DNA of 64,000 bases from an uncultured virus (IMG/VR IMGVR_UViG_3300038393_002953). Taxonomy: Duplodnaviria; Heunggongvirae; Uroviricota; Caudoviricetes. The DNA lies in the IMG/VR virus record IMGVR_UViG_3300038393_002953, one strand, 5' to 3'. Numbering within the stretch: the stretch's first letter is position 1; each line of letters starts with the position of its first letter. The notes below the pieces were generated by a model that did no database searches, was not told the DNA's origin, and saw only the letters and a program-made list of their open reading frames with translations. The translations under genes and the position numbers were made by a program. This document shows positions 6,841 to 62,165 of this stretch, in pieces.

Positions 6841-6921
6841 TCTTAATATAAAGAAAGATATACGGACTCCTCCAGGCGCTCTAAATCTTCGAGAAGAGCG
6901 CGTCGAGAGGAGGTCTTTCCC

Positions 6922-8118: not shown

Positions 8119-8121
8119 CAC

Positions 8122-8161
8122 GAGAAGCCCCCGGGACGCCAGGTCCCGGGGGCTTCTTCTT
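8122..8161. terminator. Bidirectional intrinsic terminator
   Basis: AGAAGCCCCCGGGA/TCCCGGGGGCTTCT inverted repeat between convergent genes. Confidence 0.85.
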
Positions 8162-12739: not shown

Positions 12740-12772
12740 GCGCTTCTGTTCGCTCCTTGGGTATCTTCCCTC

Positions 12773-12801
12773 ACTATATCCAAATTATAACGCAGCGTCA
12801 A
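12773..12801 (-). promoter_or_regulatory. Sigma70-type promoter
   Basis: TTGACG-17-TATAGT. Confidence 0.65.
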
Positions 12802-12818
12802 CGCGACTCAATCATAAT

Positions 12819-13475
12819 TTACGAGGCCATTTTCTTGTAGAGGACCGCCAACCCGACGGCGGCGGCGTCGGAGTCGTCGCACACCTTGTCGTTGCCCGGC
12901 TTGGAGAACGGCACGCCGAACTGCTCGGAGAGGACCTGCTTGACCAGGACCTTCGAGGAGATGCCCTCCAGCTCGACCAGCTTGGTCCAGCCCGGGTGAT
13001 TGCGCAACACGAAGGCCTTGGCCTCCTGAGGCGTCACGGAGTAGAACGGCAGGTTCCGCATGACCGCGACCGCCTCGATAGCGCCGAAGCAACGGAAGAG
13101 CAGCGCGGACGAGCCGAAGTTGCGCCCGATAAAGGGCTCCTCCAGCGCGATCGCGGTCGGCTTGGTCTTCTCGATCAGCAGACCGACCTTGGCGATGATC
13201 ACCGGCACGCGCTGATCCGCGTCCAGCTCCTTGCGGTTCTCGTCGCGCGAGACGTCTAGCAGGCCGTAAGCCACCAGCTTGACCATGCCGCCATGGACCT
13301 CCAGTAGCGACCATCCGGTCAGCTTGGAGGACTGATCGAGCGCGAGCAGCCGGGTCCCATCCTCCGGCAGGCGGTAGAGGATGGTCCCCGGCTTCTTCTT
13401 GGGCGTGACCTTGGGCTTCTTCGCGGGCTTAGACGAGGAGCCGGTGGGCGTAGTCTGAGATGCTTTCGAGGGCAT
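12819..13475 (-). CDS. ruvC: RuvC-like Holliday junction resolvase
   Basis: LLALDQS, IALEEP, DDSDAAAVG catalytic pattern. Confidence 0.85.
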   Translation of the reverse strand: MPSKASQTTPTGSSSKPAKKPKVTPKKKPGTILYRLPEDGTRLLALDQSSKLTGWSLLEVHGGMVKLVAYGLLDVSRDENRKELDADQRVPVIIAKVGLLIEKTKPTAIALEEPFIGRNFGSSALLFRCFGAIEAVAVMRNLPFYSVTPQEAKAFVLRNHPGWTKLVELEGISSKVLVKQVLSEQFGVPFSKPGNDKVCDDSDAAAVGLAVLYKKMAS

Positions 13476-16739: not shown

Positions 16740-16791
16740 GAAGCGTTCCTCCCTATGACATGGGCCTTGGGTTCATTGTAACACGAAGAGT

Positions 16792-16811
16792 GCCGCCCGT
16801 TTCGGGGCGGC
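16792..16811 (-). terminator. GC hairpin, probable terminator of the nrdBA transcript
   Basis: GCCGCCC/GGGCGGC stem with GAAA-containing loop on the minus strand. Confidence 0.55.
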
Positions 16812-16916
16812 TCCTCAATCGTTATGAATCGAAATGGTGCGGCATGCTACTGGCACGCCTCGCACATTGCTCGTTTGGCAGACTTGGGTTAGCATGGGAT
16901 CACCCTGGAGGCGATC

Positions 16917-17618
16917 ATGAGACACGACCGCGAGTGTTACACGTACTTGATCGGCTGGACCCGGTTAGGTCTATTTTACTACGGGTCGCGCACTGCGATA
17001 GGCTGCTCGCCCGAAGACCTCTGGGTGCGTTATTTTACGTCGTCCGAGATTGTGAAGAAGGTCCGAAATACCCATGGAGATCCCGACCTAATCCAGGTGC
17101 GCCAGGGTTTTGGTGACGATCGCCTGGCCTGTATTACATGGGAGAATAAGGTGCTGAAGCGTCTCGGGGCCGTAACCCGTGATGACTTTCTTAATCGTGC
17201 CAATGCCTTCGGTGTGACGGGGGACCCTATGGCCGGAGAGCTAAACCCCATGTTTGGTCGGGAGCGACCCGACTCTGCTGAGCGTATGCGGCACAGCAAC
17301 CCTATGCATGATCCTGAAGTGGTAAAGCGTGCATCAGCATCTCTCAGGGGTCGTAAGACCTGGAATAAGGGCATACCGAATGAGGCGGCCCGGGAGAGAA
17401 TGAGGATGCGGAACCCGATGAAAGATCCCGCAGCCCTTCAGAAGAGGCTATCCAAGCGCACGCCAGAAATGAGCGGCAAGGGTCAGGTATGGGTCGCGAA
17501 CGTAGTTACAGGGGAGAGGAAGAGAGTTGCTCCGGCCAGCCTAGCCAACCTCCTGGCTGGAGGCGAATGGATAAAGCTAAGCAACCGCAAGCCTATTCCC
17601 CTGGAACTAGGATTATGA
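16917..17618 (+). mobile_element. Free-standing GIY-YIG-type (Seg-like) homing endonuclease with NUMOD-like repeats
   Basis: YTYLIGW...YYGSR...YFTSS N-terminus; GELNPMFG/SNPM/RNPM repeats; lower GC; antisense to neighbours. Confidence 0.8.
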
Positions 17619-17619
17619 C

Positions 17620-20935: not shown

Positions 20936-21103
20936 TTAAGGGGTGGTGGGGGTTTCGGACTGAAGCTTCCTGAAGACGAGCATGCCCTCGACGTAGTGCG
21001 ACAGCTCCCATCCGGCGGCGACCCGCTCGGCCAGGAGCTTCTTCATGCCCACCTTGTTGAGGGGAACATTGTCTTCCACGTCATATTCGGGCGCATTCAT
21101 CAT
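20936..21103 (-). CDS. 55-aa protein (absent from ORF track), probably leaderless
   Basis: MMNAPEYDVED...AAGWELSHYVEGMLVFRK; fills the gap below promoter 21110-21137. Confidence 0.6.
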   Translation of the reverse strand: MMNAPEYDVEDNVPLNKVGMKKLLAERVAAGWELSHYVEGMLVFRKLQSETPTTP

Positions 21104-21109
21104 AGCTCA

Positions 21110-21137
21110 ATCCTAACAAATTATGGATGAAAGTCAA
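21110..21137 (-). promoter_or_regulatory. Sigma70-type promoter
   Basis: TTGACT-16-TAGGAT in an AT-rich gap. Confidence 0.6.
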
Positions 21138-21155
21138 TAGATACGGGCACGGGTT

Positions 21156-33429: not shown

Positions 33430-33458
33430 AAGCTAACACGATCTTCTCGACAAATCAA
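33430..33458 (-). promoter_or_regulatory. Promoter of helicase/primase operon
   Basis: TTGATT-17-TAGCTT; near-copy of the dnaE promoter. Confidence 0.6.
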
Positions 33459-33780
33459 GGCCCCCCGATCGGGCCGATCGCATGCAAAAGCATGCGGTCG
33501 CTTGGCTTCGGGCCTTCGGGGAGCCTCATGCCCCTCACTTCGCCTCCAGGCTCGCCATCCGAGACTGAAACCTTCTCCAGGCCCAGGTCTCCACCCGGCG
33601 GCGGAGCCTGCGCAGCCGCCGTCCAGAAGATCCTACGAACGAAGTGAGTAGGATCTTCATGGGCCCCATGGTCTCTCTTAGGATCCAGGATCCCGAAGGG
33701 ATCATGGTTCATCTTCCGCACCCGCGCGCGCGAACAAAGGCAGCGCGCCCATGCGCATGCATGAGGACTGGCGGCGGGGT
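33459..33780. ncRNA. Highly structured intergenic element (candidate ncRNA or replication origin)
   Basis: Multiple inverted repeats enclosed by a long-range helix; no credible ORF. Confidence 0.45.
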
Positions 33781-33809
33781 TGACAGCGGCAAACATTATG
33801 GCGTAGACT
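33780..33809 (+). promoter_or_regulatory. Sigma70-type promoter
   Basis: TTGACA-18-TAGACT. Confidence 0.7.
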
Positions 33810-33816
33810 CCTCGAA

Positions 33817-33874
33817 GGCATACGACCCACCAGGCGCGACGAGACCCCAGGTAGACGAGCAGAAGGCATACGAC
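33817..33874 (+). repeat. Two GAAGGCATACGACC direct repeats in the 5' leader
   Basis: GGCATACGAC core at 33817 and 33865. Confidence 0.85.
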
Positions 33875-33902
33875 CGGCCCCCACCCTACACGAGGAAGAC
33901 CC

Positions 33903-41875: not shown

Positions 41876-43270
41876 ATGGGAATGGAACATTTCTCCGCCC
41901 GGCACAACGGCGAGAACGGCGGAGGGCAGGCGGATACGCCTCGCCAGGGCCTGAAGGGCACGCTGCACGTCTGGATCCAGAGCTTCAAGTTCAAGACCAG
42001 CCAGCGCGGCAAGCCCTACGCGGACGGGCGGCTGGTGATCTGCCAGAAGCAGCCCGACGGCACGGTCGCCTGGAGCAAGAACCACACGTTCTTCCAGGTC
42101 TACCCGACCGACTCGAAGCTGGACTTCCACGAGCAGTTCGCCAGGGCCTTCCCCCAGGCCTACCAGGCCCAGGAGGGCCAGCAGGTCCCCGGCTGCGAGG
42201 CGTTCCTCTGGTGCGAGCCCCGGGGCCGCATGCCCGAGGAAGGCACGGGCGAGGAGAAGGCCAAGGCCTACTCCGCGTCTCTCAAGATCCTCGGCTGGAA
42301 GTCCCGCGAGGAGCTGAACGACCGCGAGAAGGAGGCCATGGGCAAGGGCGAGATGAACCTCTCGGGCATCTGCCTGTTCGTGGACGACAAGGAGATCACG
42401 GGCTACCGTGGCGCCAAGGTCGTCGATGGCAAGCCCAAGGACGCCTTCGCGCAGACCATCGTGCGCGCGATCAACGCCTTCGTCTCGGGCCGCGACCAGA
42501 GCCTCCAGGCCTCGGTGGATCACTACATCCTCAAGGCCTTCGGCCCCGCCGCCGATGCGGTCTTCTCGGTCCTCGGCAAGCCCGAGGTCACCGACACCAC
42601 GCCGCTCTACGTCCGTGCGAACATGGATGGCAGCCGGATCAACATCGTCGGCGTCGAGATCGCGAAGAACCAGAACGTGCCCCGCACCGTCGAGGAAGCC
42701 AAGCTCCGGGAGGCGCAGAAGCAGATGCCGCAGCCGATGGCCGCGCCCACGCTCGGCGCGTTCACGCAGCCGCAGTCGCCCTTCGGTCAGCCCCAGCAGC
42801 CCGGCTACCCGCAGCCTGCCCCGCAGGGCTACCCCGCGCCGCAGCAGCCGGGTTACCCGGGTCAGGCCCCTCAGCCCGGCTACGGCCAGCCCGTGCCCCA
42901 GGCCCCGCAGGGTTACCCCGCGCCGCAGCCCGGATACCCGGCGCCCCAGCCGCAGCCCGGCTACCCGCCGCAGCAGGGTTATCCCCAGGCCGCGCCCCAG
43001 CCCGGCTACCCCGCGCAGGCCCCCGCGCCGCAGGGCTACCCCGCGCCGCAGCCCGGTTACCCGCCGCAGGCCGCGCCCGCCCCCCAGCAGCCCGGTTACC
43101 CGCCGCAGGCGGCTCCCCAGGCCCCGCAGGGCTACCCGGCTCCGGCGCCTCAGGCGCCCCAGGGTTACCCCGCGCAGTCGCAGGGATACGGACAGCCCGC
43201 CCCGGCGCCCCAGCCCGGTTACCCGCCGCAGGGCCAGCCCGGTCCCGGCTACCCGCCGACCCAGCAGTAG
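41876..43270 (+). CDS. Putative SSB/OB-fold protein with long PQGY-repeat tail
   Basis: [15 protein letters not shown] is OB-like; about 170-aa tail of (P/Q)GYP repeats; upstream of an annealase. Confidence 0.55.
42780..43267 (+). repeat. Degenerate coding tandem repeats ([10 protein letters not shown])
   Basis: Recurrent CAGCCCGG(C/T)TACCC and CAGGG(C/T)TACCC units. Confidence 0.9.
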
Positions 43271-43299
43271 AACCCCCTTAAGCAAGAGGAAAAACCGAC

Positions 43300-44709
43300 A
43301 TGGCGAAAAGCGACAAGGTGGGCGGCGGTTCCCTGGAACTGTCCGCCCAGGCCAAGGCCCGACAGGCGGCGCTCTCCGCTCCGTTCTCGTCGGAGCAGGT
43401 GAAGAAGAAGGGCGCCGAGCCCTACGTGCCCATCGAGTATGTGATGGCTCGGCTGCACGCGGTCTTCGGCCCGCGCATCTCAGTGACCGTCCCCGGCTCG
43501 GAGAACGGCGTGGCCCAGTACATGGTGCAGCGCCTGCACGAGGGTAAGCAGCACCCGACCGGTTTCCAGTACCTCACGGAGATCGTGCTGCCCGTGCGCG
43601 TCGTGATCTACGACGAGGAGCAGGAGCGCGAGATCGTGCTGGAGGGCTTCGGATCGAAGATCTACAACGCCTTCAAGAAGGATATCGGCGAGGCCTTCCG
43701 CTCCGCCAAGTCCACGGGTATCAAGAACGCCGTCAAGGCGCTCGGCATCCCGCTCGACGGCGGCTCCGAGGAGAACGAGGACGACGGCGCCGTGGACGGC
43801 TTCGCGCCGCCGCCGCCGATCACGGGCGCGATCACCCCGCCGCCGCCGGTCACCACCGCGCAGCCCCTCACGGCCCAGGCTCAGGCTCAGGTCGCCCAGG
43901 TGCCGCCCGCTCCGCCGACCGGCCAGGAGGCAGTCGCCCAGGTTCCGCCCATCGCCCAGGCCCCGCTGCCTCCCGCGCCCGACGCGGCCCCCGGCTTCGC
44001 GCCCGCGCCCGTGGCGCCTCCGATGACGCCGCCTCCCGTTCCGCAGGCCCCTCAGCCGCCCCAGGCGGCCCAGGTCCCGCCCGCGCCGATGGCGCCTCCC
44101 CAGGCCCCTCTGATGCCTCCTCCGGCGCCGCAGGCCCCGCCCCAGCAGCCGGTCCTGCCTCCGCCGCCTGCCGCGCAGTGGGAGCAGCCCGTGCCGCCGC
44201 AGGCGCCTCCTGCCCAGGCGCCCGTCCCCCAGGCCCCTCAGCAGCCGACCATGGTCTCGAACGAGTACCAGGCGCCGCCCCAGCAACCCGTCTACCCGCA
44301 GGCGATCCAGCAGCCGATGGCTCCGCCCGTCCCTCAGGCCCCTCAGGTGATGGCGCCTCCCCCGGCCCCGCCTCAGGCGCCTCAGGTTCCCCCGTCGATG
44401 CCGCCTCAGCATCCGGTCGCGCCCCCGCCCGCGCCGCCTCAGGCCCCTCAGGTCCCGGCTCCTCAGGCGCCGCAGGCTCAGCCGCAGTATCCGCAGCCGA
44501 TCATCCATGCTCATCAGCCGGGCGATCCGATCAACTACTGCACGCAGTGCCAGCACCTGATCACGGGCGTGACCGACCCCGAAGGCCACTACTGGCCCGC
44601 GCAGGAGGTCTTCGATACGACCTCCAATCCGAACAAGGGTTATGGCCGGGCGCTCTGCATCCCCTGCTACACGTCGCTCGCCACGTCGCAGGCCCAGGCG
44701 CCGCAGTAG
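43300..44709 (+). CDS. Rad52/Sak-like single-strand annealing protein with Pro/Gln linker and C-terminal Zn finger
   Basis: LSAPF...YVPIEYVMARLHAVFGP...AFRSAKSTGIKNAVKALGI; CTQC...CIPC. Confidence 0.75.
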   Translation: MAKSDKVGGGSLELSAQAKARQAALSAPFSSEQVKKKGAEPYVPIEYVMARLHAVFGPRISVTVPGSENGVAQYMVQRLHEGKQHPTGFQYLTEIVLPVRVVIYDEEQEREIVLEGFGSKIYNAFKKDIGEAFRSAKSTGIKNAVKALGIPLDGGSEENEDDGAVDGFAPPPPITGAITPPPPVTTAQPLTAQAQAQVAQVPPAPPTGQEAVAQVPPIAQAPLPPAPDAAPGFAPAPVAPPMTPPPVPQAPQPPQAAQVPPAPMAPPQAPLMPPPAPQAPPQQPVLPPPPAAQWEQPVPPQAPPAQAPVPQAPQQPTMVSNEYQAPPQQPVYPQAIQQPMAPPVPQAPQVMAPPPAPPQAPQVPPSMPPQHPVAPPPAPPQAPQVPAPQAPQAQPQYPQPIIHAHQPGDPINYCTQCQHLITGVTDPEGHYWPAQEVFDTTSNPNKGYGRALCIPCYTSLATSQAQAPQ

Positions 44710-45432: not shown

Positions 45433-47769
45433 ATGTCCACTCTCAAGCCGCTCAACCAGAAGGACAAGAAGGCCGCGATCACCAATGCGCTGGCCCAGAT
45501 CAACAAGCAGCATGGCGAAGGCACCGCCATGATGATGGGCGCCAACAAGCACATGCAAGTCGAGGCGCTCTCGTCGGGCATCCTCTCGATCGATCTGGCG
45601 ACCGGCGTGGGCGGCGTGCCCAGGGGCCGCGTGGTCGAGATATACGGCCCTGAGTCCGGCGGCAAGTGTCTGGTCGCTGATACCTTGATCGCGACGCCCG
45701 GCGGCCTCAAGACGATTGCCGAAGTCTTCGAAGAGAACGGCCTTCCTGCTTCTTGCGTCTCTCGCACTACCGAGAAGCGCGTTCCGCTGATCAACCGGTA
45801 TGGCGAGGTGGAGTACACGACGCATTTCACCCACAACAACCGTCGCAAGGTCGCCAGGATCACCACCTTCACTGGCGCGCAAACCACTTCGACTCTCAAC
45901 CATCCTCACCTCGTTTTGAGCGTGCGCGGAAACCTGGTCTGGCGCAAGACCTCGGATCTCCGCGTGGGCGACATACTCGTGGCGCCTCGTAGCCTGCCTT
46001 TCGGTGAGGCACGCCGTGACGCAGATGAGATGTACATGCTCGGCCTGCTCGTCGCGGACGGCACGCTGGGCGAAAACCGCGTCCAGGTCACGAACGACGA
46101 CCCGGTGGTCAAGAGCTTCGTCGAGGAGCGCATGCCCGCGCTCGTGGGCGCTGGCCCGAAGTCTTACGTCAACAACGAGCGCGGCAGCGTCAACTACCAC
46201 TTCAACGGCAAGGAGGCCGTCTCCGACCTGTACGCGCGCTACGGGCTCGATCCCGTCAAGGCCTCGGGTAAGGAAGTACCCAGGCTCGTCCGCGAGTCGG
46301 ACCGCGACGCGGTGCGGGAGTTCCTGCGCGGCTACATGGACTCCGAGTGCTCGATCGACCTGGAGAAGTGCGGGATCGAGGTCACCTCGGCCTCCGGCAA
46401 GCTGCTGCGTGGCGTCAAGCTGCTGCTCCAGCAGTTCGGCATCGTCTCGCTGCTCCGTCCCAAGGAGGTCAAGGGCTACGAGCAGAACGATTACTGGCGC
46501 CTGACCGTCACGGGCCGCGACGCGCGGCTGTACGCCGAACGGATCGGCGCGCGCTCCGAGATCCGGCGGGCGCAATTGATGGCGCTTCCCCAGCGGGAGC
46601 AGTTCCAGACGAACTACGACTCGATCCCCCACCTCGGCGGCATGCTGCGCGATCTCTACGACTCGTGCGAGACGACTCGCCATGAGTCGGATCTGCTCTG
46701 CGACTACATGGGCGACGAGCCGCGCGCGAGCCTGACCTACGATCGCCTCAAGCAGATCGTCGAGACGCCCGCGTTCCAGGATGCTCCGATCCTCGCTGCG
46801 CTCCGTCGCTTCGCCGAGGACGAGTACCTTTTCGACGCGGTGGTCTCGATCGAGGACGGGGGAGAGCAACCGACGTTCGACTTCGCCATGGAGCGCACGC
46901 ACTCGTTCGTCGCGAACGGCCTCGTGACCCACAACACCACCACCACGCTCCACTTCGTCGCGGAGTGCCAGCGGCGCGGCGGCCAGTGCGCCTTCGTGGA
47001 CGCGGAGCATGCGCTCGACCCGGCCTACGCGAAGGCGCTCGGCGTGGACGTGGACACCCTGATCGTCTCGCAGCCGGACTACGGCGAGCAGGCACTCGAC
47101 GTCGTGGAGTCCCTCGCGGCCTCCGGCGCGATCGACCTGATCATCGTGGACTCCGTGGCCGCGCTCACGCCCAAGGCCGAGATCGAGGGCGAGATGGGCG
47201 ACTCCCAGGTCGGCGCCCAGGCCCGCATGATGGGCAAGGCCATGCGCAAGCTGACCGCGACCGCCGGGCGCACGCGCTGCACGATCATCTTCATCAACCA
47301 GATCCGCGAGAAGGTCGGCGTCATGTTCGGCAACCCCGAGGTCACGACGGGTGGGCGCGCGCTGCGCTTCTTCTCGTCGATGCGCCTGGAGGTCCGCCGC
47401 GTCGAGACGATCAAGGTGGACGGCCAGGAGGTCGCCAACCGCGTCAAGGTCAAGCTCGCCAAGAACAAGGTCTCGCGCCCCTTCACGGTCGCCGAGGCCG
47501 AGCTGACCTTCGGGTTCGGCTTCTCGCGCGCCGCCTCGATCCTCGACACCGCCGAGGCCAACGGCCTGATCCAGAAGTCCGGCGCCTGGTACGCTTACAG
47601 CGGCCAGAAGATCGGGCAGGGCCGCGCCAAGGCGATCGAGTTCCTGAACGCCAACCCCGAGATCGCGGACAAGCTGGACAAGACCCTGCGCGAGAAGTTC
47701 TTCGCGGCGCCCACGACCCTCGACCCGACCGTCAGGGACGACGAGGAAGATCAGGAGCAGGAGGACTAG
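45433..47769 (+). CDS. recA: RecA recombinase containing an intein
   Basis: GRVVEIYGPESGGK|TT, DAEHALD, DSVAAL, FINQIREKVGVMFGNPE. Confidence 0.97.
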   Translation: MSTLKPLNQKDKKAAITNALAQINKQHGEGTAMMMGANKHMQVEALSSGILSIDLATGVGGVPRGRVVEIYGPESGGKCLVADTLIATPGGLKTIAEVFEENGLPASCVSRTTEKRVPLINRYGEVEYTTHFTHNNRRKVARITTFTGAQTTSTLNHPHLVLSVRGNLVWRKTSDLRVGDILVAPRSLPFGEARRDADEMYMLGLLVADGTLGENRVQVTNDDPVVKSFVEERMPALVGAGPKSYVNNERGSVNYHFNGKEAVSDLYARYGLDPVKASGKEVPRLVRESDRDAVREFLRGYMDSECSIDLEKCGIEVTSASGKLLRGVKLLLQQFGIVSLLRPKEVKGYEQNDYWRLTVTGRDARLYAERIGARSEIRRAQLMALPQREQFQTNYDSIPHLGGMLRDLYDSCETTRHESDLLCDYMGDEPRASLTYDRLKQIVETPAFQDAPILAALRRFAEDEYLFDAVVSIEDGGEQPTFDFAMERTHSFVANGLVTHNTTTTLHFVAECQRRGGQCAFVDAEHALDPAYAKALGVDVDTLIVSQPDYGEQALDVVESLAASGAIDLIIVDSVAALTPKAEIEGEMGDSQVGAQARMMGKAMRKLTATAGRTRCTIIFINQIREKVGVMFGNPEVTTGGRALRFFSSMRLEVRRVETIKVDGQEVANRVKVKLAKNKVSRPFTVAEAELTFGFGFSRAASILDTAEANGLIQKSGAWYAYSGQKIGQGRAKAIEFLNANPEIADKLDKTLREKFFAAPTTLDPTVRDDEEDQEQED
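45667..46935 (+). mobile_element. LAGLIDADG intein (423 aa) in the RecA Walker A motif
   Basis: CLVADT...TLNH...LGLLVADG...FLRGYMDSE...VTHN|T. Confidence 0.95.
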
Positions 47770-53267: not shown

Positions 53268-53296
53268 TTGATCTGTCGGGAAGGGCGTGATAACAT
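53268..53296 (+). promoter_or_regulatory. Promoter of dnaE
   Basis: TTGATC-17-TAACAT with extended TG. Confidence 0.6.
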
Positions 53297-53327
53297 CTGG
53301 AAAGCAAAGGCTGTTCAGGAGAACCAC

Positions 53328-55925
53328 ATGAAGCGGCGATTCGTTCACCTCCACGGGCATTCCCAATATTCGCTCCAGGACGGCGCGAGCCGCATCGACA
53401 AGCTGGTGGGCGCGGTGGTGGCGAACGGCATGGACGCGGTGGCGCTGACCGACCACGGCGTCATGTACGGCTCGCTGGAGTTCTACAAGGAAGCGCAGAA
53501 GAAGGGCATCAAGCCCATCATCGGCTGCGAGGCCTATATCTGCAAGAATCGTAACGAAAAGGTCGGCGGCAACAAGAAGGACCACGAGAACCGCACCTAC
53601 CACCTGGTGCTGCTGGCGGAGAACAAGAAGGGCTACCTGAACCTGTTGAAGATGGTCTCGGAGGCCAACACCCGGGGCTTCTACTCCAAGCCGCGCATCG
53701 ACCACGGCCTGCTCTACGAGTGCCGAGAGGGTATCATCGCGCTTTCGGCCTGCCTGGGCGGCGAGGTCTCGCAGCACCTGCTCAAGGGCGACTACGAGCG
53801 CGCCAAGGCGATCGCGATCTACTACGATCAGCTCATGGGGCGCGGCAACTACTTCCTGGAGATGCAGGACCACGGCATCGAACTCCAGCGCCAGGTCAAC
53901 GACATGCTGCGCCGCATCTCCGTCGAGACTGGGATCCCGCTCGTCGTGACCAACGACTACCACTACGTCGAGCATGGGCACCACAAGCACCACTGCGCGC
54001 ACGTCTGCTCGGGCCAGCGCAAGACGGTCAACGACCCCACGGCCTACGAGGCCTACTCGACCAAGCAGTTCTACATCAAGAGCCCCGAGGAGATGTGGGC
54101 GATCTTCCCCAACGACCCCGAGGCGCTGCTGAACACCGTGCGCATCGCGGACCGCTGCAACGTGCTGGTCGAGATGGGCAAGTATATCCTGCCGGATTTC
54201 CCGGTTCCGGAAGGTTACACCGAATCTTCCTACATGCGCAAGCTCGCTTGGGAGGGCCTCGCGATTCGAGGGCTCGACCAGGACCCCGCCTGCCGGGAGC
54301 GCCTCACCTACGAGCTGGACATGATCGACCAGATGGGCTTCCCGGGTTACTTCCTGATCGTCCAGGACTTCATCAACTGGGCGCGCGGCAAAGACATCCC
54401 CGTGGGGCCAGGGCGCGGCTCTTGCGCTGGCTCGCTCGCGGCTTATTGTCTCCAGATCACCGACATCGAACCGCTCAAGTACGACCTTCTCTTCGAGCGC
54501 TTCCTCAATCCGGACCGCATCTCGATGCCCGATATCGATACGGACTTCTGCATCGAGCGGCGCGGCGAGGTGATCCAGTACGTCCAGGACAAGTACGGCG
54601 CCGACAAGGTGTCCGGCATCGGCGCGATCGGCACGCTCGCGGTCAAGGCCTCGATCAAGGACGTGGGCCGCGTCTTCGGCTTCGACTTCCAGACCATGAA
54701 CCGCGTCTCGAAGCTCGTGCCCGACGGCCCCAACCACACCTGGGACGATCCCGACGTCGCGGGCGAAGGCTCCGAGCTGATGAAGGTCTGCAAGAACGAC
54801 CCTCGGCTCATGGAGGTCGTCGAGCTGGCGAAGGAACTCGGCCCGCGCCGCAAGGACGGCAAGGAGACCAAGGGTATCGCGCGCAACATCTCGAAGCACG
54901 CGGCGGGCGTGATCATCGGCTCAGATCCGCTGGAGACCTGCGTGCCGCTGTTCTTCGACCGCAAGAGCGCCTCGACGATCCCGAACACGCAGTGGGACAT
55001 GGTGTGGAGCGAGAAGCTCGGCCTGGTCAAGATGGACTTCCTCGGGCTGCGCAACCTGACGGTCATGCGCAAGGCCCGCGACATCATCCACCAGTCCACC
55101 GGCGCCTGGATCGACCTGCGCACGCTGCCGCTGGACGACCCCAAGGTCTACGACCTCTTCAAGGCGGGCGATCTGCTGGGCATCTTCCAGGTCGAGGGCG
55201 AGGGCATCTCAGAGGTCGCGCAGCAGATCGCGCCGACCAACATGGAAGAGATCGGCGCCATCCTGGCGCTCTACCGCCCGGGCCCGATGGACTCCGGCGC
55301 CATGCAGGAGTACATCGACCGCAAGGCGGGGCGCAAGTCCGTCTCCTACGACCACCCGGATCTGGAGCCGATCCTCAAGAAAACCTACGGCTGCATGATC
55401 TACCAGGAGCAGGTCATGCAGACCGCCGTGGCGATCGCGGGCTACACGATGCCGATGGCCGACAACCTGCGCAAGGTAATGGGAAAGAAGGACATGAACA
55501 AGATCGCCGAGGAGTGCGATCGCTTCGTCAAGGGCGCGGTCGCCAAGGGCCACGACGAGACCTGGGCCAAGAAGCTGGCGGACGACATCTCGAAGTTCGC
55601 GCGCTACGGCTTCAACAAGTGCCTGATGGGGGACACGCTGATCCGGGATACGGAGGGCAATGTCCGCACGATCCGTGAGATGTGGGAGACGCCACCGCCC
55701 AAGGGCACCAAGCTGCACAGCGTCACGCCCGAGGGCCAGGTGGTCGAGAACGACTTCATCGAGGCGTTCCCTACGGGCAAGAGGAAGGTGGTCCGCGTGA
55801 AGACGCGCGACGGTCGGGTGGTCGAGTGTACGCCGGATCACAAGTTCCTGACCCCGGACGGAACGTACAAGACCATCGCCGAGATCGGTGTCGGAGGCCA
55901 GATCGTTGCGGCAAAGCTTGATTGA
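53328..55925 (+). CDS. dnaE: DNA polymerase III alpha N-terminal part fused to split intein N-half
   Basis: PHP HLHGHS/TDHG, GPGRGS, MPDIDTDF, KMDFLGL, YGFNK then CLMGDT...TPDHKF and stop. Confidence 0.95.
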   Translation: MKRRFVHLHGHSQYSLQDGASRIDKLVGAVVANGMDAVALTDHGVMYGSLEFYKEAQKKGIKPIIGCEAYICKNRNEKVGGNKKDHENRTYHLVLLAENKKGYLNLLKMVSEANTRGFYSKPRIDHGLLYECREGIIALSACLGGEVSQHLLKGDYERAKAIAIYYDQLMGRGNYFLEMQDHGIELQRQVNDMLRRISVETGIPLVVTNDYHYVEHGHHKHHCAHVCSGQRKTVNDPTAYEAYSTKQFYIKSPEEMWAIFPNDPEALLNTVRIADRCNVLVEMGKYILPDFPVPEGYTESSYMRKLAWEGLAIRGLDQDPACRERLTYELDMIDQMGFPGYFLIVQDFINWARGKDIPVGPGRGSCAGSLAAYCLQITDIEPLKYDLLFERFLNPDRISMPDIDTDFCIERRGEVIQYVQDKYGADKVSGIGAIGTLAVKASIKDVGRVFGFDFQTMNRVSKLVPDGPNHTWDDPDVAGEGSELMKVCKNDPRLMEVVELAKELGPRRKDGKETKGIARNISKHAAGVIIGSDPLETCVPLFFDRKSASTIPNTQWDMVWSEKLGLVKMDFLGLRNLTVMRKARDIIHQSTGAWIDLRTLPLDDPKVYDLFKAGDLLGIFQVEGEGISEVAQQIAPTNMEEIGAILALYRPGPMDSGAMQEYIDRKAGRKSVSYDHPDLEPILKKTYGCMIYQEQVMQTAVAIAGYTMPMADNLRKVMGKKDMNKIAEECDRFVKGAVAKGHDETWAKKLADDISKFARYGFNKCLMGDTLIRDTEGNVRTIREMWETPPPKGTKLHSVTPEGQVVENDFIEAFPTGKRKVVRVKTRDGRVVECTPDHKFLTPDGTYKTIAEIGVGGQIVAAKLD
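55620..55922 (+). mobile_element. Split intein N-fragment (101 aa)
   Basis: Block A CLMGDTLI and block B ECTPDHKFLT. Confidence 0.92.
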
Positions 55926-57069
55926 CAACCGGGAGCGCGTGATCGCCGTTTACGAGGGCGGCATGACCTGCCGAGAGGTCTGGCAGGCCATGCCGGAACT
56001 CGGCATCTCGCGCGACGCGACGATCGCCAGCGCGCTGCGCGAATGGGGCGTCCAGATGCGTCCCCGTCGCCCAAGGCAGGCGCTGACCGGCCAGCAGGAG
56101 GCGCAGGTCGTCGAGCTTTACCGCTCCGGGCTGTCCGCGCCTCAGATCATTGAGCGACTTGGCCTCTCCGCGTCGGTGGGCCCCATTCATGCGCTGCTGG
56201 ATCGTGCGGGAATCGACGCTCGCGATGCGGGGCATTATAAGAAGGGTCGAGCGCCGGTAAACAAGCGATTGTCTGATGAGATGGAGGGCGCGATGGTGGA
56301 GGCGTACCTCGGTGGGCGATCGGCCCAGCGGGTCGCCGACGACTTCGGCTTCAAGACCGACAAGACGGTGCTGGACGTGCTTCACAAGCGTGGCGTAGCG
56401 GTCAAGGAGGGGTCGCGCGACTACGCGCTCGACTCCTGCTGGCACGAGGCGTTCGCCGACGTTCAGACCGAGGAGCAGGCGTACTGGCTGGGCATGCTGA
56501 TCACCGATGGCTGGATCTCGAAGGCGTCCGAGAAAGACGCATGGCAGGTTGGGCTCCAGCTCAAGGAAAGCGACCTGGCGCACATCGAGAAGTTCAAGGC
56601 ATTCCTGAAGTCTGACTCCAAGATCTCGCGGGTCAAGAAGATCCACGAAGGTAAGACCTACTGGATGTATCGGCTGATGGTCAACTCGCGCCAGATGAAA
56701 CGTGACCTGGAAAAGTACGGCGTCGTCGAGCGGAAGAGCGACAAGACCTTCTTGCCCGAGCTTCGGCCCGATCTGATGCGGCACTTGTTGCGCGGCATTC
56801 TGGATGGAGATGGGTGTATTTTTAGGTCTTACGGCGTTCTTGAAGGTGTCACTTTCTCTGGTTCGGAGTGCCTTGTGCGAACTATCGCTGTGTTGCTGAA
56901 CGCAACGCTAGGGGTTGCGCAGAACAAGGTTCGCGGTAAGGGCATGTGCAAGAGTCACGCCTGGGCTGCCAGGGAGGACGTTTCCAGGATTCTGAATTTC
57001 CTGTATAACGATTGCCATGTCGCTCTTGAGCGTAAGTTCTCTCTTTATAAGGAGTGGTTTGATGCCTGA
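55918..57069 (+). mobile_element. Free-standing LAGLIDADG homing endonuclease with N-terminal HTH-like repeats
   Basis: AYWLGMLITDG and LLRGILDGDG; start uncertain (TTG 55918 or GTG 55888). Confidence 0.9.
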
Positions 57070-58423
57070 GTTGATGATCGACGAGATTGAGAGCATCGAA
57101 TATATAGGGGAGGATGAGACCTACTCCTTAGAGATGGCCGACCCCTATCACAATTACCGACTTGGAAATTCTCTTATTAGTTTGAATTCCCATTCCGTGG
57201 CTTACGCCTTCATCGCGTACCAGACTGCCTGGCTCAAGGCGAACTACCCGCGCCAGTACATGGCCGCGCTCCTGTCGTCGGTGGTCGGCAACCACGAGAA
57301 GATCCAGGTCTACATCGACAACTGCCGCCGCATGAACATCCCGATCCTGCCGCCCGACGTGAACCACTCGGAGGAGGACTTCTCGGTGGACGCCTCCGGC
57401 GCGATCCGCTTCGGCCTGGGCGCGGTCAAGAACGTCGGCGCCGACGTGATCCGCCAGCTGATCGCGCACCGCAAGCGCGTGGGAGGCTTCCGCGACCTGA
57501 ATCACTTCTACGCCGAGGTCGGTCTTTCGCTCTGCAACGCGCGCGTGATGGAGAGCCTGATCCGCGCGGGTTGCTTCGACTCCATGGGGGTCCACCGCAA
57601 CGGGCTGCTCCAGCAGTTCCCGCTGATCCGCGAGGCCTACTCGAAGGCCATGAAGAAGGGCAAGAAGCAGATCCCGGGCCAGACCATGCTGTTCCAGCTC
57701 GCGACCCGCTTCGTGGCAGATCCAGTGGCCGTGCCCGAGTGCGAGGCGTTCACGCGTCTCCAGTGCCTGGCGGACGAGCGCGAGAAGATCGGCACCTACG
57801 TCTCCGGCCACCCGCTCGACGACTACGCGCTGGGCCTGCCCTACCTGACCACGATCGACGTCTCGCCCAAGCAGCCCGATGCGGTCGAGGAGGATGCCGA
57901 GGAAGGCACGGAGGCGCCGGTCGCGCCCTGGCCCGCCGAGAACGAGCTGATCGCCATGGCTGGCATCCTGACCCGCACGCGCAAGATCACCACCCGCACC
58001 ACGGGCGCGGCCATGATGCTCGGCGAGATCCAGAACAAGTACGGCTCGATCAAGGTCGTCTTCTTCCCCAAGACCTTCGAGGCCTACGGCGACTGCCTGG
58101 GCGAGGACGTCTTCGTCTCGGTGATCGGCAAGTTCAAGATGGACGGCGACACGCCCGAGATCATGGCCGACAAGGTGGTCCCGCTCGACCAGGCGCGCGT
58201 GATGGTGGTCAGGCTGCCTGCCGACATGGACGGCACGGGCGTGCTGCCCATCAAGGCTGCGCTCGGCGGCGGCGACACCCCGGTGGTGTTCGTCAACCAG
58301 CACCGCCCCGGCGAACACGTCGTCGCGCACCCCTCGCTCTGGGTCAAGCCTTCCGAGGAGCTGGAGGCGCGCATCTACCGCTTGTGCCGTGGCGTCACCC
58401 TGGAGGTGCGCCGCCTCTTCTAA
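57062..58423 (+). CDS. dnaE: Split intein C-half (42 aa) fused to DNA polymerase III alpha C-terminal part
   Basis: AAGGAG RBS; IESIEYIGEDETYSLEM...SLN|SHSVAY; PPDVN, IRFGLGAVKNVG, YVSGHPL, OB fold. Confidence 0.95.
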   Translation: MPELMIDEIESIEYIGEDETYSLEMADPYHNYRLGNSLISLNSHSVAYAFIAYQTAWLKANYPRQYMAALLSSVVGNHEKIQVYIDNCRRMNIPILPPDVNHSEEDFSVDASGAIRFGLGAVKNVGADVIRQLIAHRKRVGGFRDLNHFYAEVGLSLCNARVMESLIRAGCFDSMGVHRNGLLQQFPLIREAYSKAMKKGKKQIPGQTMLFQLATRFVADPVAVPECEAFTRLQCLADEREKIGTYVSGHPLDDYALGLPYLTTIDVSPKQPDAVEEDAEEGTEAPVAPWPAENELIAMAGILTRTRKITTRTTGAAMMLGEIQNKYGSIKVVFFPKTFEAYGDCLGEDVFVSVIGKFKMDGDTPEIMADKVVPLDQARVMVVRLPADMDGTGVLPIKAALGGGDTPVVFVNQHRPGEHVVAHPSLWVKPSEELEARIYRLCRGVTLEVRRLF

Positions 58424-58433
58424 GGAGCCGGTC

Positions 58434-58988
58434 GTGTCCGTCTTCAAGTTCGACAGGGACGTCAACTTCGAGGGGATGGTGTCCATCGAGGACGCCATCT
58501 CCGCCTTGTATGCGGGCCGGGCCGTCAGCATGATCGACCTGCCGATCGCGTGGCGATCGCCCAGCACCGCCATCCCGGTCCCGCTGGTGATCAAGGCGGT
58601 CCGACCGCGCAAGGGGCGCTTCCCGGAGGCGGTTCCGCTGACGCGCGAAAACATAATGAAACGCGACGAGACCTGCCAGTATTGCGGCGTGGGCGGCAGG
58701 CTGACGATCGATCATGTCGTGCCCCAGGCTCACTTCAAGAGCGGCAAGGCCGCCTTGCGCCACCCGGGCCTCAAGGTCTGGTGCTGGGAGAACGTGGTCG
58801 CGGCCTGCGCGCGCTGCAATAACCGCAAGGCCAATCGGACGCCCGAGGAAGCGGGGATGAGGCTGCTACGCAGACCGTTCGTGCCGCGCCCCGCCGACAT
58901 CCTGAAGAGTCAGACGGTCTGGGATCGCATCGCGGAGTGCATGCGCGAACACGGCATGGGGGATTCTTCGTCCATGGGGTTGACGTAG
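58434..58988 (+). CDS. HNH endonuclease (McrA-like)
   Basis: RDETCQYCG...LTIDHVVP...WENVVAACARCNNRK. Confidence 0.92.
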   Translation: MSVFKFDRDVNFEGMVSIEDAISALYAGRAVSMIDLPIAWRSPSTAIPVPLVIKAVRPRKGRFPEAVPLTRENIMKRDETCQYCGVGGRLTIDHVVPQAHFKSGKAALRHPGLKVWCWENVVAACARCNNRKANRTPEEAGMRLLRRPFVPRPADILKSQTVWDRIAECMREHGMGDSSSMGLT

Positions 58989-59008
58989 CGTTTTATGTAG
59001 TTTACAAT
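58980..59008 (+). promoter_or_regulatory. Strong sigma70-type promoter firing into a non-coding region
   Basis: TTGACG-17-TACAAT. Confidence 0.8.
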
Positions 59009-59014
59009 TCAATA

Positions 59015-59410
59015 CATTCCGGGCGGGTCCAGCGCCCCGTCCAGCCGCGCGGCGCTCCACTCCACTAGGCACCGTCTCGCGGCTCTCAGGAAGTCACCGG
59101 GTGAAGGTCATCCACAAACGGAAGAGGCTCCAGGCCTGGCAGGGCCCGAAGCCTCAGAAGATCTCACGGCGAACACGTTGCGGGCCGTTCCTTTGGAACG
59201 AGGCGACGACCCAAGTGAGATCCCTCTCAAGAGTCCGGACCGCTAGCGACACGGTTCGGACTCTTCCGTTTGTACCCCCGGAGCGGCGGTCGAAACCGGC
59301 CAGTCATCAGGCACATAGATATACTAAGCTTGTTAGGGTTAAATGTCCATACCCTCATGAGCAAATTTACCTTTGTTCATAATTTTGGCAACCGACCGTA
59401 AGATCGGCAC
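59015..59410 (+). ncRNA. Candidate structured non-coding RNA, class unknown
   Basis: Own promoter; nested long-range helices; no credible ORF; 3' end uncertain. Confidence 0.6.
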
Positions 59411-59416
59411 GGCGCG

Positions 59417-59445
59417 TTGGTGTAAAACGCCAGAGATGCTACAAT
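59417..59445 (+). promoter_or_regulatory. Extended -10 promoter, leaderless
   Basis: TTGGTG-17-TACAAT with TG; ATG follows after 6 nt. Confidence 0.55.
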
Positions 59446-59451
59446 GGCTCT

Positions 59452-60015
59452 ATGCAGTACCAGGTGGAGCGATTCGAACACGTTATGGTTGTCCCCTCAG
59501 GCGCGTGGGTCGGCACTCCGACCACGTTGTTCCGCCTGGGCGACGGCCCGGGCGCCGAGGCATTGAGCCGCGAGGAGATGGTCGGGCTGTGCGCGATGTC
59601 GTCGGCGGAGGTCGTCACGATCGCCGGGAAGGCGCCGCTACGGATGCCCGGCGTCTCCTCGCTGATCATGACGCTCTCCAGGACGCACCGCGTGCTGGTC
59701 CGGGCGACATGCCCCAGTCAGCCCTGGATGGCTGGTCGCATCCCATTCCGCCGCGCCCAGATCGTCGAGGAGGTATCCGTCCCAGACCCCTGGCTCCAGG
59801 CCGACGAGGTGATCTTCGTCCTGTCCGAGCGGAACCCGCTCCCGGGTCTCGCTGCCTGGTCGTCGGTTTGCCCGGAGGTCTATCTCCAGCCCGCCACGTC
59901 GGCGGAGGTCGAGGAGGCTATGCGCTTCGTCGCCACCCATCCCGGCTACCGCCTGTCCCCGCCGTTGGAGGCCATGCGGCTTCCGGACGGCAGCAATCAT
60001 AACGTTTGGAGTTGA
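59452..60015 (+). CDS. QueE-like protein lacking the radical-SAM Cys motif
   Basis: GAWVGTPTTLFRLG, VVTIAGKAP, VYLQP, HPGYRLS follow the QueE layout. Confidence 0.6.
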   Translation: MQYQVERFEHVMVVPSGAWVGTPTTLFRLGDGPGAEALSREEMVGLCAMSSAEVVTIAGKAPLRMPGVSSLIMTLSRTHRVLVRATCPSQPWMAGRIPFRRAQIVEEVSVPDPWLQADEVIFVLSERNPLPGLAAWSSVCPEVYLQPATSAEVEEAMRFVATHPGYRLSPPLEAMRLPDGSNHNVWS

Positions 60016-61389: not shown

Positions 61390-61418
61390 TTGACATTCTG
61401 CTTGCCTCATGCCATAAT
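61390..61418 (+). promoter_or_regulatory. Sigma70-type promoter, leaderless
   Basis: TTGACA-17-CATAAT; ATG follows after 6 nt. Confidence 0.75.
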
Positions 61419-61424
61419 TCGGTT

Positions 61425-62165
61425 ATGAGGCAAGCAGATCCCAACCTTCGCTATTACGACTACTCGGCCTTGCAAGCATGCGAGGCCGGGTATTGGTTCG
61501 AACACGCCATCGCCGGGGTCTCCATGCCCAGCCGCGACGGCCACGACCGCCAGGCGCTCGTTCAGACCTTCGTGCCCCGCCAGGAGCTGTTCCTGGTGCG
61601 CGAGCCGAACAACGAGTTCGACCGCAACGCGATCAAGATCGTGGACCAGTACGGTCGCAGCCCGGGCTACGTCTCGGCCAAGCCTGCCGACTGGTGGGGC
61701 ATCCCGGGCGGGCTCGCGGGCTTCCTGGCCGAACGCATGGACAAGGGGGAGGTCTGGCGCGCTTTCGTGGTCGGCGTCTTCGGCGGCAAGCCCATGTACG
61801 GCAAGCCCACCTGGGGCTGCCGCGTCTGCTTCGTCATGCTGAAGGGAGCGCCCTTCTCGCTGACCTCGCGCTTGCCGCTGGGCGAGCAGACCTGGCGCGA
61901 CGACGGCCTGCCGTTCCCCGACGATGCCGCCGCGATGCTCGCGACGATCATGCCGCAGGCGGGCGCGCTGCCCGAGTCCTGGCAGGCCTACCTGGCGCAG
62001 GTGTCCTTTGCGGTGAACCGCTTCGGCGGCGCGCCCCTGGTCGTGCGCAACGCGCTGCGCGGCCTGCTGGGCCTCCCGGCGCTGTCCGAGATCGTGGTGC
62101 CCGCCCAGCGCGACCACGAGCCCCAGCCGGTCGCGGCCAACGACGACTGGGACACCTATGCCTAG
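61425..62165 (+). CDS. HIRAN-domain protein
   Basis: IAGV...LFLVREPNNEFDRNAIKIV...GYV. Confidence 0.8.
   Translation: MRQADPNLRYYDYSALQACEAGYWFEHAIAGVSMPSRDGHDRQALVQTFVPRQELFLVREPNNEFDRNAIKIVDQYGRSPGYVSAKPADWWGIPGGLAGFLAERMDKGEVWRAFVVGVFGGKPMYGKPTWGCRVCFVMLKGAPFSLTSRLPLGEQTWRDDGLPFPDDAAAMLATIMPQAGALPESWQAYLAQVSFAVNRFGGAPLVVRNALRGLLGLPALSEIVVPAQRDHEPQPVAANDDWDTYA

Follow-up and report, generated by a model that had tools for sequence, protein, structure and literature searches.

The locus described here raises the question whether a long gap behind a small HNH nuclease gene in an uncultured virus gives rise to an RNA of its own and, if so, whether this RNA belongs to the nuclease. The DNA under study, called the window throughout, is a stretch of 64,000 nucleotides (nt) of the IMG/VR record IMGVR_UViG_3300038393_002953 (Caudoviricetes). 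A preliminary description had placed a promoter-driven, highly structured non-coding RNA of about 300–400 nt behind the nuclease gene and had regarded it as a possible partner of the HNH protein, by analogy with nuclease-RNA pairs of the OMEGA type, or as a decoy. Our analysis narrows this picture to a four-way junction of about 160 nt, and we tentatively propose that the spacer encodes a discrete, stable, structured phage small RNA of an undescribed class, to which we assign a rough probability of 0.4. With one sequence, strong folding statistics and good signals at hand, this is a lead rather than a discovery. If the RNA is real, it constitutes a class of structured phage RNAs not described before, encoded by a lineage without close relatives.

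A non-coding spacer with its own promoter-like site

The window has a G+C content of 65.7% and its genes are densely packed, such that intergenic gaps are mostly shorter than ~60 nt in a gene call based on the G+C content at third codon positions (GC3). The spacer between the HNH gene and the next operon (58989–59451) measures 463 bp and shows no coding signal. Its GC3 is 0.55–0.70 in all frames, as compared with 0.86–0.97 for the genes of the window, and its longest open reading frame (ORF), with 93 amino acids (aa; 59101–59382), matches no Pfam family. Comparison of this ORF with 1.84 billion representatives gave only six multi-stretch matches, to proteins of 424–3746 aa, which we read as probably due to low complexity. 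The earlier statement that the spacer holds no credible ORF thus stands. Two features meet at its upstream border:

58434–58988, plus strand: gene for a 184-aa PLMP-like plus HNH nuclease, IshB-like (Pfam HNH, 4.1e-8), with the Shine-Dalgarno sequence AAGGAG upstream
58980–59008, plus strand: sigma-70-type promoter-like site TTGACG-17-TACAAT, 10/12, overlapping the HNH stop codon TAG (58986–58988)

The promoter that had been noticed across the HNH stop codon is therefore present, and it is the best promoter-like site of the window, located 444 nt ahead of the next gene. Altogether, 11 sites scored at least 10/12 in the scans, this one included. Seven of the other ten lie 26–94 nt 5' of a gene start in correct orientation, while three are intragenic, and such sites consequently look functional in this genome.

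A four-way junction clamped by a 13-bp helix

The central part of the spacer folds into the following elements, which are given without a strand unless one is indicated:

59114–59273: core four-way junction, ~160 nt, three hairpins closed by helix P1
59114–59126/59261–59273: P1, a perfect 13-bp inverted repeat (repeat scan and fold)
59124–59155: hairpin A (fold)
59156–59227: hairpin B (fold)
59229–59265: hairpin C (fold), containing a 14-bp repeat (59229–59242/59252–59265, 93% complementary)
59098–59285: limits of the core with its outer CGGG/CCCG extension (fold)
59017–59097, plus strand: 5' flank with two hairpins (for 59017–59100, z −1.38, with 22 of 200 shuffles equally stable)

All helices of the preliminary description were recovered, the 13-bp and 14-bp repeats in the repeat scan and the rest in minimum-free-energy folds. 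P1 closes straight onto the three hairpins, leaving between zero and two unpaired bases at the junction, and its outer 9 bp have pair probabilities of 0.77–1.0. Because of a repeated AAGAG, the junction can slide by ~4 bp between P1 and hairpin C. The two helices share CUCUU, and the resulting two junction registers are seen in the split pair probabilities of 0.77 for 59122/59265 and 0.25 for 59123/59264, in line with the competition for CTCTT and the two conformations noted in the preliminary description.

The core (59098–59285) is considerably more stable than expected, with z scores of −4.72 on the plus and −4.16 on the minus strand relative to 200 shuffles. As a control, 80 windows of 188 nt were sampled across the 64 kb (mean −0.27, standard deviation 1.12). 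Only one of them, at 8101, was as low as the core, and it contains a terminator: between convergent genes at 8119–8160 lies a bidirectional terminator-like hairpin with a 16-bp G+C-rich stem (−37.7 kcal/mol, z −6.2). For the entire 411-nt stretch the values are −4.05 (plus) and −3.96 (minus), with the signal concentrated in the core, whereas the 3' pieces of the spacer yield −1.2 to −1.6. The claim of a highly structured RNA of 300–400 nt accordingly holds for a core of ~160–188 nt and not for its flanks. Taken on its own, the 13/13 match of the P1 arms is unremarkable (BLAST E value of 0.36 against the whole window); what is unusual is the placement of the 13-bp helix flush against three hairpins, not the repeat itself. 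The feature is real and non-random.

Strand, transcript ends and a possible replication origin

Signals for the beginning and the end of a transcript were found on both strands:

59114–59155, minus strand: hairpin A as a terminator-like element, uninterrupted 13-bp G+C-rich stem (9/13 G-C) followed by UUCCGUUUGU (terminator scan)
59284–59303, either strand: small hairpin with the loop CGAA (plus) or UUCG (minus), −10.1 kcal/mol on the plus strand, z −1.63
59306–59385, either strand: A+T-rich tract, G+C 0.34, the lowest-G+C 80 bp of the window
59391 to 59364 and 59349 to 59321, minus strand: two promoter-like sites, 9/12, inside the A+T-rich tract
59357–59388, plus strand: A+U-rich hairpin, weak, of 9 bp with UAAUUUU behind it, which may serve as terminator or attenuator on this strand (within a fold of −13 kcal/mol, z −1.63)

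The plus strand is favored by the best promoter of the window and by the direction of the neighbouring genes. On the minus strand, hairpin A has the stem (13 pairs, 9 of them G-C) and, with TTCCGTTTGT, the U-rich run of an intrinsic terminator, so that termination is predicted there (−26.4 kcal/mol, z −4.03). It is built like the terminator-like hairpins of this phage at 8119–8160 and 27718–27694, and its UUCCGUUUGU tail is at the same time the 3' arm of P1. The minus-strand fold comprises 64 pairs, including nine G·U pairs that become A·C mismatches on the plus strand, and the plus-strand fold 57 pairs with three G·U. This asymmetry is suggestive of the minus strand, although not significant.

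Taken together, a discrete small RNA is suggested by a non-coding stretch in a tightly packed genome, by a core with a folding excess on both strands that is reached by a single control window and with a 13-bp helix abutting three hairpins, by a strong plus-strand promoter along with a minus-strand terminator-like hairpin, and by the lack of any Rfam, tRNA or tmRNA match reported below. From these features we infer that the region is transcribed; two candidate transcripts, one on each strand, would fit the sequence. The functional body would be the ~160-nt junction at 59114–59273, in which the 13-bp helix clamps the ends of the three hairpins. One option is a plus-strand RNA of ~370 nt that the promoter at 58980 would initiate at ~59015 and that would terminate near 59388, where the weak hairpin with its U-run is located. 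The other is a minus-strand RNA of ~200 nt that would start near 59314 in the A+T-rich tract and end at the hairpin A terminator. In the latter case the U-rich 3' tail would pair with the 5' segment and thereby form P1, and the RNA would have paired termini, as many stable RNAs do. In either form the RNA would act in trans, probably as a protein-binding scaffold or a decoy and not as a guide.

A number of observations weigh against this proposal. The region is present in ten sequencing runs of soil and rhizosphere metagenomes, all of them DNA runs and none an RNA run. The core fold is nearly strand-symmetric, and a 13-bp helix free of G·U pairs and mismatches is equally what a DNA inverted repeat gives. 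By our own estimate, the 9:3 imbalance in G·U pairs has a p value of ~0.2 once the excess of A over T is allowed for. The minus-strand promoter-like sites reach only 9/12 and are weak, since matches come easily in an A+T-rich tract, and the plus-strand terminator candidate at 59357–59388 is likewise weak and absent from the terminator-scan list. Neither flank of the core is significantly structured. Furthermore, a coding stretch of 160 nt within the HNH gene (58440–58599) has a z score of −3.69; values near −4 are therefore not unique to the spacer, and strong folds arise elsewhere too. Finally, the core is known from a single sequence, with no homologue by any route searched from which covariation could be drawn.

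The A+T-rich tract would suit either a promoter region or an element for DNA unwinding. The spacer could be a transcription-primed replication origin, in which the promoter fires through the folding G+C-rich stretch into easily melted DNA while the opposing transcript may exert a regulatory role. The setting is suitable: The element resides in a replication module right 3' of the genes for DnaE and the HNH protein, the window also encodes primase, helicases, a RecJ-like exonuclease and a RecA-type recombinase, and the strong promoter upstream of the most A+T-rich 80 bp of the window is accompanied by promoter- and terminator-like sites on the opposite strand and by three hairpins that form on both. 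However, no direct repeats or iterons were found in the region, for which reason an iteron origin was rejected. The GC skew across the window merely tracks gene orientation and turns near 33 kb, the divergent intergenic region at 33440–33902 is an equally good candidate, and further A+T-rich tracts (6818–6897, 12762–12841 and 21064–21143) mark ordinary promoter regions. An origin at this position thus appears quite improbable.

Known RNA classes and search for homologues

In an Rfam scan of the 64-kb window no match was obtained at gathering score. A permissive scan of 58700–59700 with E values up to 10 gave six chance-level matches, the best with an E value of 2.8 and none of them HEARO. The earlier impression that the element belongs to no known Rfam class is confirmed by these scans. 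Within the reach of the Rfam models, they exclude HEARO/omega RNA, packaging RNA (pRNA) and introns as well as the riboswitches and ribozymes known so far. For omega RNA (HEARO, RF02033), the position of the element is a further point, as it is located 3' of the nuclease gene and not 5' on the same strand. In line with the preliminary description, neither tRNA nor tmRNA is present: ARAGORN found zero such genes in the window, and no Rfam tRNA model matched at E values up to 10. A group I or group II intron had also been discounted, rightly so, because apart from the lack of an Rfam match DnaE ends at its own stop codon and the following ORF has its own start. PreQ1 and other riboswitch families were not detected in the spacer region at E values up to 10. 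A retron msr-msd was rejected because, despite the inverted repeats, no reverse transcriptase family is encoded by the neighbouring ORFs. Ten small ORFs in the spacer were inspected with regard to a type I toxin-antitoxin system; the highest 15-residue hydropathy was 1.47, and none combines a convincing Shine-Dalgarno sequence with a membrane helix. A pseudogene remnant was dropped as a candidate as well. Within the window, complementarity of the element to possible targets did not exceed chance; the best match, over 15 nt, had an E value of 0.023 and the wrong polarity for a plus-strand RNA.

Homologues were sought by several routes. With the spacer as blastn query, none of 50,697 phage records was matched. 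Among viral contigs, the HNH protein as a query led to 14 loci, all of them matches to the HNH domain only with at most 53% identity, and the DnaE N-part led to two (43% and 30% identity), in whose complete records the model of the core found no match. With the downstream ORF, the DnaE C-part and a 256-aa ORF as queries no loci were retrieved from the viral contigs, and the DnaE C-part retrieved none from metagenome contigs. Paired P1 arms separated by a gap of 120–150 nt were not found together in either type of contig. R1, a covariance model for which the core was the only input sequence, matched solely the window itself among 28 sources and again among 36 sources (best E value 0.1), and nothing in three actinobacterial genomes. 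In 151 sampled Actinomycetota genomes it produced five matches at E values up to 1, the best (0.0115) in the unpublished genome G004. Since a search of 151 genomes should yield a similar number by chance, we read them as noise.

These searches also bear on the view that the element has no dedicated function and is a palindromic relic resembling a miniature inverted-repeat transposable element (MITE), or else a cluster of terminators that insulates the DnaE-HNH unit, possibly having arrived with the HNH gene. Perfect 13-bp terminal inverted repeats do flank a hairpin-rich non-coding body of ~160 bp, the fold works equally well as DNA and on either strand, hairpin A resembles the terminators of the phage, and selfish elements are present nearby, as the DnaE gene is split and accompanied by a free-standing LAGLIDADG gene and the RecA-type gene harbours an intein. 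On the other hand, self-comparison of the window revealed no second copy, the flanking sequences ATCC and ACCC do not constitute a target-site duplication, and the arms were not found as a pair in metagenome or viral contigs, on which counts a MITE was discarded; the sampled Actinomycetota genomes gave no convincing match. Moreover, independent terminators need no closing helix flush against them. We consider such a relic or insulator unlikely.

The downstream gene and the possibility of a leader

On its downstream side the spacer borders on two further features:

59419–59447, plus strand: promoter-like site TTGGTG-17-TACAAT of the leaderless type, ending 5 nt before the ATG at 59452, the start of a gene without a Shine-Dalgarno sequence
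59452–60015, plus strand: 187-aa orphan, first gene after the spacer, with an Atlas model resembling a QueE/radical-SAM half-barrel

A candidate for the own promoter postulated for the next gene is therefore present, even though its score falls under the threshold of the promoter scan. A precedent for the leaderless layout is provided by the HIRAN-domain gene with its ATG at 61425 (61391–61427), where TTGACA-17-CATAAT is located 6 nt upstream and a Shine-Dalgarno sequence is lacking as well, which indicates that leaderless starts occur in this genome along with the more common ones preceded by AGGAG.

The 187-aa ORF itself has no Pfam or PHROG family. A search of 5.8 billion protein clusters returned a single match, a fragment of 123 aa with 100% identity that is listed as the window's own. 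Neighbours of its model in the ESM Atlas are QueE (7-carboxy-7-deazaguanine synthase) and radical-SAM proteins, with template modeling (TM) scores of 0.75–0.78 over residues 1–179; a single-sequence AlphaFold2 (AF2) model had a predicted local distance difference test (pLDDT) score of 45 and was unusable. Inspection of the translation by eye for the cluster-binding cysteine motif of radical-SAM enzymes revealed none, and Pfam found no other 7-deazaguanine pathway gene in the window. Judging from the predicted fold, the ORF may encode a QueE-like protein that has degenerated or taken on another role.

Riboswitches are well known to control genes of the queuosine pathway. It is conceivable that the spacer is a cis-regulatory leader: The promoter at 58980 would drive the operon from 59452 onward via a structured 5' leader of ~440 nt, in which the junction would serve as a sensor or as an element modifying RNA polymerase and the hairpin at 59357–59388 as an attenuator, in the manner of a riboswitch or a put-type antiterminator. 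Promoter, structured domain, hairpin with U-run and gene are arranged on the same strand in an order that suits this function, all other intergenic high-scoring promoters of the window serve the next gene, the competition between P1 and hairpin C for CUCUU provides two junction registers (0.77 versus 0.25), and the first downstream gene has the QueE-like predicted fold. Against these points stand the absence of preQ1 and any other riboswitch family in the permissive scan, the weak and non-significant attenuator hairpin, the lack of a recognisable radical-SAM cysteine motif and of companion pathway genes, and the lack of homologues that could show a conserved expression platform. In addition, the −10 element 5 nt ahead of an ATG without a Shine-Dalgarno sequence fits a leaderless mRNA from the gene's own promoter, and a long read-through leader would translate that gene poorly. 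We regard a leader function as rather unlikely.

The adjacent IshB-like nuclease and its relatives

The HNH gene starts at 58434, 10 nt behind the stop of dnaE (58423), and its codon usage fits the phage (GC3 0.88). Matches in Pfam are confined to HNH, HNH_5 and HNH_4, with no RuvC match. An alignment with 30 relatives revealed a conserved N-terminal domain of ~60 residues ahead of the HNH core, the invariant residues of which are D93-H94, N120, N129 and two CxxC pairs, and the best PDB match of the family profile is TbaIscB (E value 2.6e-19). An AF2 model (pLDDT 82.5) was compared with 48,161 chains. Its residues 1–60 align to the N-termini (residues 1–54) of HfmIscB (Z 7.0), TbaIscB (6.8), DtIsrB (6.1), OrufIscB (6.0) and 9liq, an IscB (5.1), with 46–48 aligned residues and root-mean-square deviations of 1.7–3.3; these Z scores are below 8 and can reflect a common arrangement. 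The next different fold is the N-terminal domain of IF3 (Z 3.4), and an IF3 likeness of PLMP is reported in the IsrB structure paper (PMC9581776). Residues 61–152 align to the HNH domains of small Cas9 proteins (Z 7.8 and 7.4). At the sequence level the PLMP domain is barely visible: Pfam RRXRR matched one of 31 family members (E value 0.16), and the profile alignment of the N-terminus to the PLMP-motif stretch of TbaIscB remained below threshold (0.2 bits). Foldseek with the whole model gave no match at an E value of 0.001 or below, probably because of the two domains, and an Atlas search with the N-terminal 62 residues yielded no usable match.

In PMC11610941, PMC10734217 and PMC13284715, IshB is described as a protein of ~180 aa with PLMP and HNH and without RuvC. 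Having 184 aa, an HNH domain, no RuvC and, according to its model, a PLMP-fold N-domain, the protein studied here is predicted to be IshB-like. IshB is counted among the OMEGA nucleases in PMC10734217, PMC11610941 and PMC10530073. Its architecture makes the analogy drawn in the preliminary description an apt one, more so than could be known from the sequence alone. The literature searched, to which the founding 2021 Science paper did not belong, contained no characterisation of IshB or of an RNA partner. Adjacency to an IshB-like protein thus touches the question whether IshB binds RNA or is guided by it.

Could the four-way-junction RNA be the cognate cofactor of the adjacent protein, gripped at its hairpins by PLMP as omega RNA is? 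The RNA directly adjoins the nuclease gene and its promoter overlaps the nuclease stop codon, the N-domain has the predicted fold of PLMP, and according to PMC9640706 and PMC9581776 PLMP of IscB and IsrB contacts the terminal hairpins of omega RNA, mainly without sequence specificity. Some relatives, too, adjoin stable-RNA genes. However, R1 found no match in 45 loci of full-length relatives, i.e., 11 loci in species-representative genomes found with the HNH protein as query, four GenBank phages and 30 Actinomycetota. All 14 of these loci that were judged for their layout have the next ORF or a tRNA within ~170 nt and therefore no room for an RNA of 200–400 nt. HEARO/omega RNA was found neither in the window nor in 18 loci of relatives. 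Unlike an omega RNA, which precedes its nuclease gene, the RNA proposed here would follow it; the protein is devoid of RuvC, bridge helix, WED and TI, the parts by which IscB holds guide and target; and PLMP is not detectable by sequence. The family occurs in 224 of 401 sampled Actinomycetota genomes (E value at most 1e-10; 14 genomes flagged unpublished), mostly once per genome, as one expects of an ordinary chromosomal gene and not of an insertion sequence or an RNA-guided mobile element. In agreement with this, Pfam and PHROG scans of the window proteins revealed no transposase family that would point to IS200/IS605 carriage.

At the family level, then, the evidence speaks against a link of the RNA with the nuclease, and the co-occurrence implied by the idea of a partnership failed to appear. 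As to the OMEGA analogy, the PLMP-like fold (Z 7.0–5.1) and an HNH domain closest to that of IscB support it, while the missing co-occurrence and the downstream position of the RNA do not. A role of the junction RNA as cognate cofactor is distinctly improbable, and it is more doubtful still that an IshB-type nuclease uses an adjacent, separately promoted junction RNA as a cofactor and is targeted or regulated by this scaffold. Were it true, the IshB branch would have its first assigned RNA partner, and both gene order and RNA architecture would differ from those of IscB and IsrB.

Some observations on the nuclease gene and its relatives deserve mention in their own right. Just inside the HNH start, at 58440–58505, two tandem hairpins are found, one with a 13-bp stem (66 nt, −31.1 kcal/mol, z −3.70, none of 200 shuffles as stable). 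Autoregulation by the nuclease is conceivable here by analogy, as PLMP of IsrB touches hairpins at the ribosome-binding site of its own gene. Two of the four GenBank phage homologues, in Virus Rctr197k and Salicola phage SCTP-2, are situated inside tRNA arrays. In three related candidate-phylum genomes a tRNA-Ser gene precedes the nuclease gene, and two of these also have tRNA-Asp downstream; five of the 30 Actinomycetota loci carry tRNA-Arg(CCG) within 1.5 kb. This proximity, a weak hint in favor of an RNA connection, could be synteny by descent or a link between the nuclease family and stable-RNA genes.

Genomic setting and host

According to Pfam and PHROG, the window represents a phage-like region for replication and nucleotide metabolism, encoding ribonucleotide reductase, primase, a DnaB-like helicase and further helicases, a RecJ-like exonuclease, a RecA-type recombinase, DnaE and methyltransferases. 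The cluster to which the HNH protein itself belongs is recorded on four contigs, the longest of 143,485 bp. In four DNA runs with a lower share the same strain was present in fragmented form; spacer variants were not seen, with the spacer partly uncovered in three of the four. The nearest phage records are 44–46% identical, and this in the DnaE N-part only, with 46% for the best phage DnaE match, which indicates a lineage without a close sequenced relative. The DNA of the DnaE C-part resembles Streptomyces phages. Together with the high G+C content, the leaderless-type promoters and the occurrence of the HNH family in Actinomycetota, this similarity weakly suggests an actinobacterial host.

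The gene for DnaE is fractured (53268–58423), with an N-part ORF at 53268–55925 and a C-part ORF at 57017–58423. At its 3' end the N-part carries ~100 extra residues, which match the intein splicing domain of Pfam over its N-half (positions 9–94 of 155 in the profile, E value 5.8e-7), and the C-part picks up the polymerase profile exactly where the N-part ends (PHROG 405, positions 793/794). Between the two parts lies a free-standing LAGLIDADG gene (55888–57069) in a different frame and with lower G+C. This layout agrees with the arrangement of a split intein and a free-standing endonuclease, as described in PMC2677866. The RecA-type gene (45433–47769) is interrupted in frame by a complete intein that includes a LAGLIDADG domain (Pfam Intein_splicing, 4.2e-12, residues 93–501; LAGLIDADG_3, 1.4e-16; RecA, 2.6e-116, in two stretches).

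Another 880 bp, at 16740–17619, lie between genes of high GC3. The sole long ORF (16917–17618) matches no Pfam family and has a GC3 of 0.61, and at 16945–17027 there are three terminator-like sites; this is a gene of foreign origin with low GC3 or else the second long stretch without coding function. At 42770–44500, direct repeats that keep the reading frame are densely packed, with spacings of 27–129 nt and many CCG, CAG and TAC codons. They fall in two adjacent ORFs (41876–43270 and 43300–44709), neither with a family match, which would encode long repeat proteins rich in proline, glutamine and tyrosine.

Comparison with known systems

The position of an HNH gene directly 3' of a conserved replication gene, with other homing elements nearby, is reminiscent of free-standing homing endonuclease cassettes. 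In contrast to these, the HNH family described here is widespread and mostly single-copy in bacterial chromosomes, and the codon usage of the gene is that of the phage (GC3 0.88).

With the OMEGA systems, i.e., IscB and IsrB with omega RNA as well as IshB, the locus shares a protein of ~180 aa with an N-domain of predicted PLMP fold, an HNH domain like that of IscB and small Cas9 proteins and no RuvC, and next to its gene a structured non-coding element of the size of an omega RNA with multi-helix junctions. According to PMC9581776, omega RNA lies upstream on the same strand, with 3' hairpins reaching the Shine-Dalgarno sequence of the nuclease gene. The element of the phage, in contrast, matches neither HEARO nor any other Rfam model, is downstream, and has its own promoter. 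IS200/IS605 ends, TnpA and a definable guide segment are not seen, and the relatives of the nuclease are single-copy chromosomal genes without a neighbouring RNA.

Plasmid ColE1 with RNA II and RNA I and the promoter-plus-unwinding-element origins of T7 and T4 are the models for transcription-primed initiation. A promoter, a three-hairpin transcript region followed by an A+T-rich tract, and a promoter and terminator on the opposite strand are common to them and to the spacer. They differ in that the spacer has no definable site for RNase H or for a primer and that the closing 13-bp helix has no counterpart.

OOP of lambda and sar of P22 are examples of small phage RNAs that each have a promoter and an intrinsic terminator to themselves. 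The proposed RNA shares with these the intergenic promoter, the hairpins and the terminator-like end, and possibly an antisense relation to a transcript from an opposite promoter. It differs from them in that it is much larger and forms a closed four-way junction.

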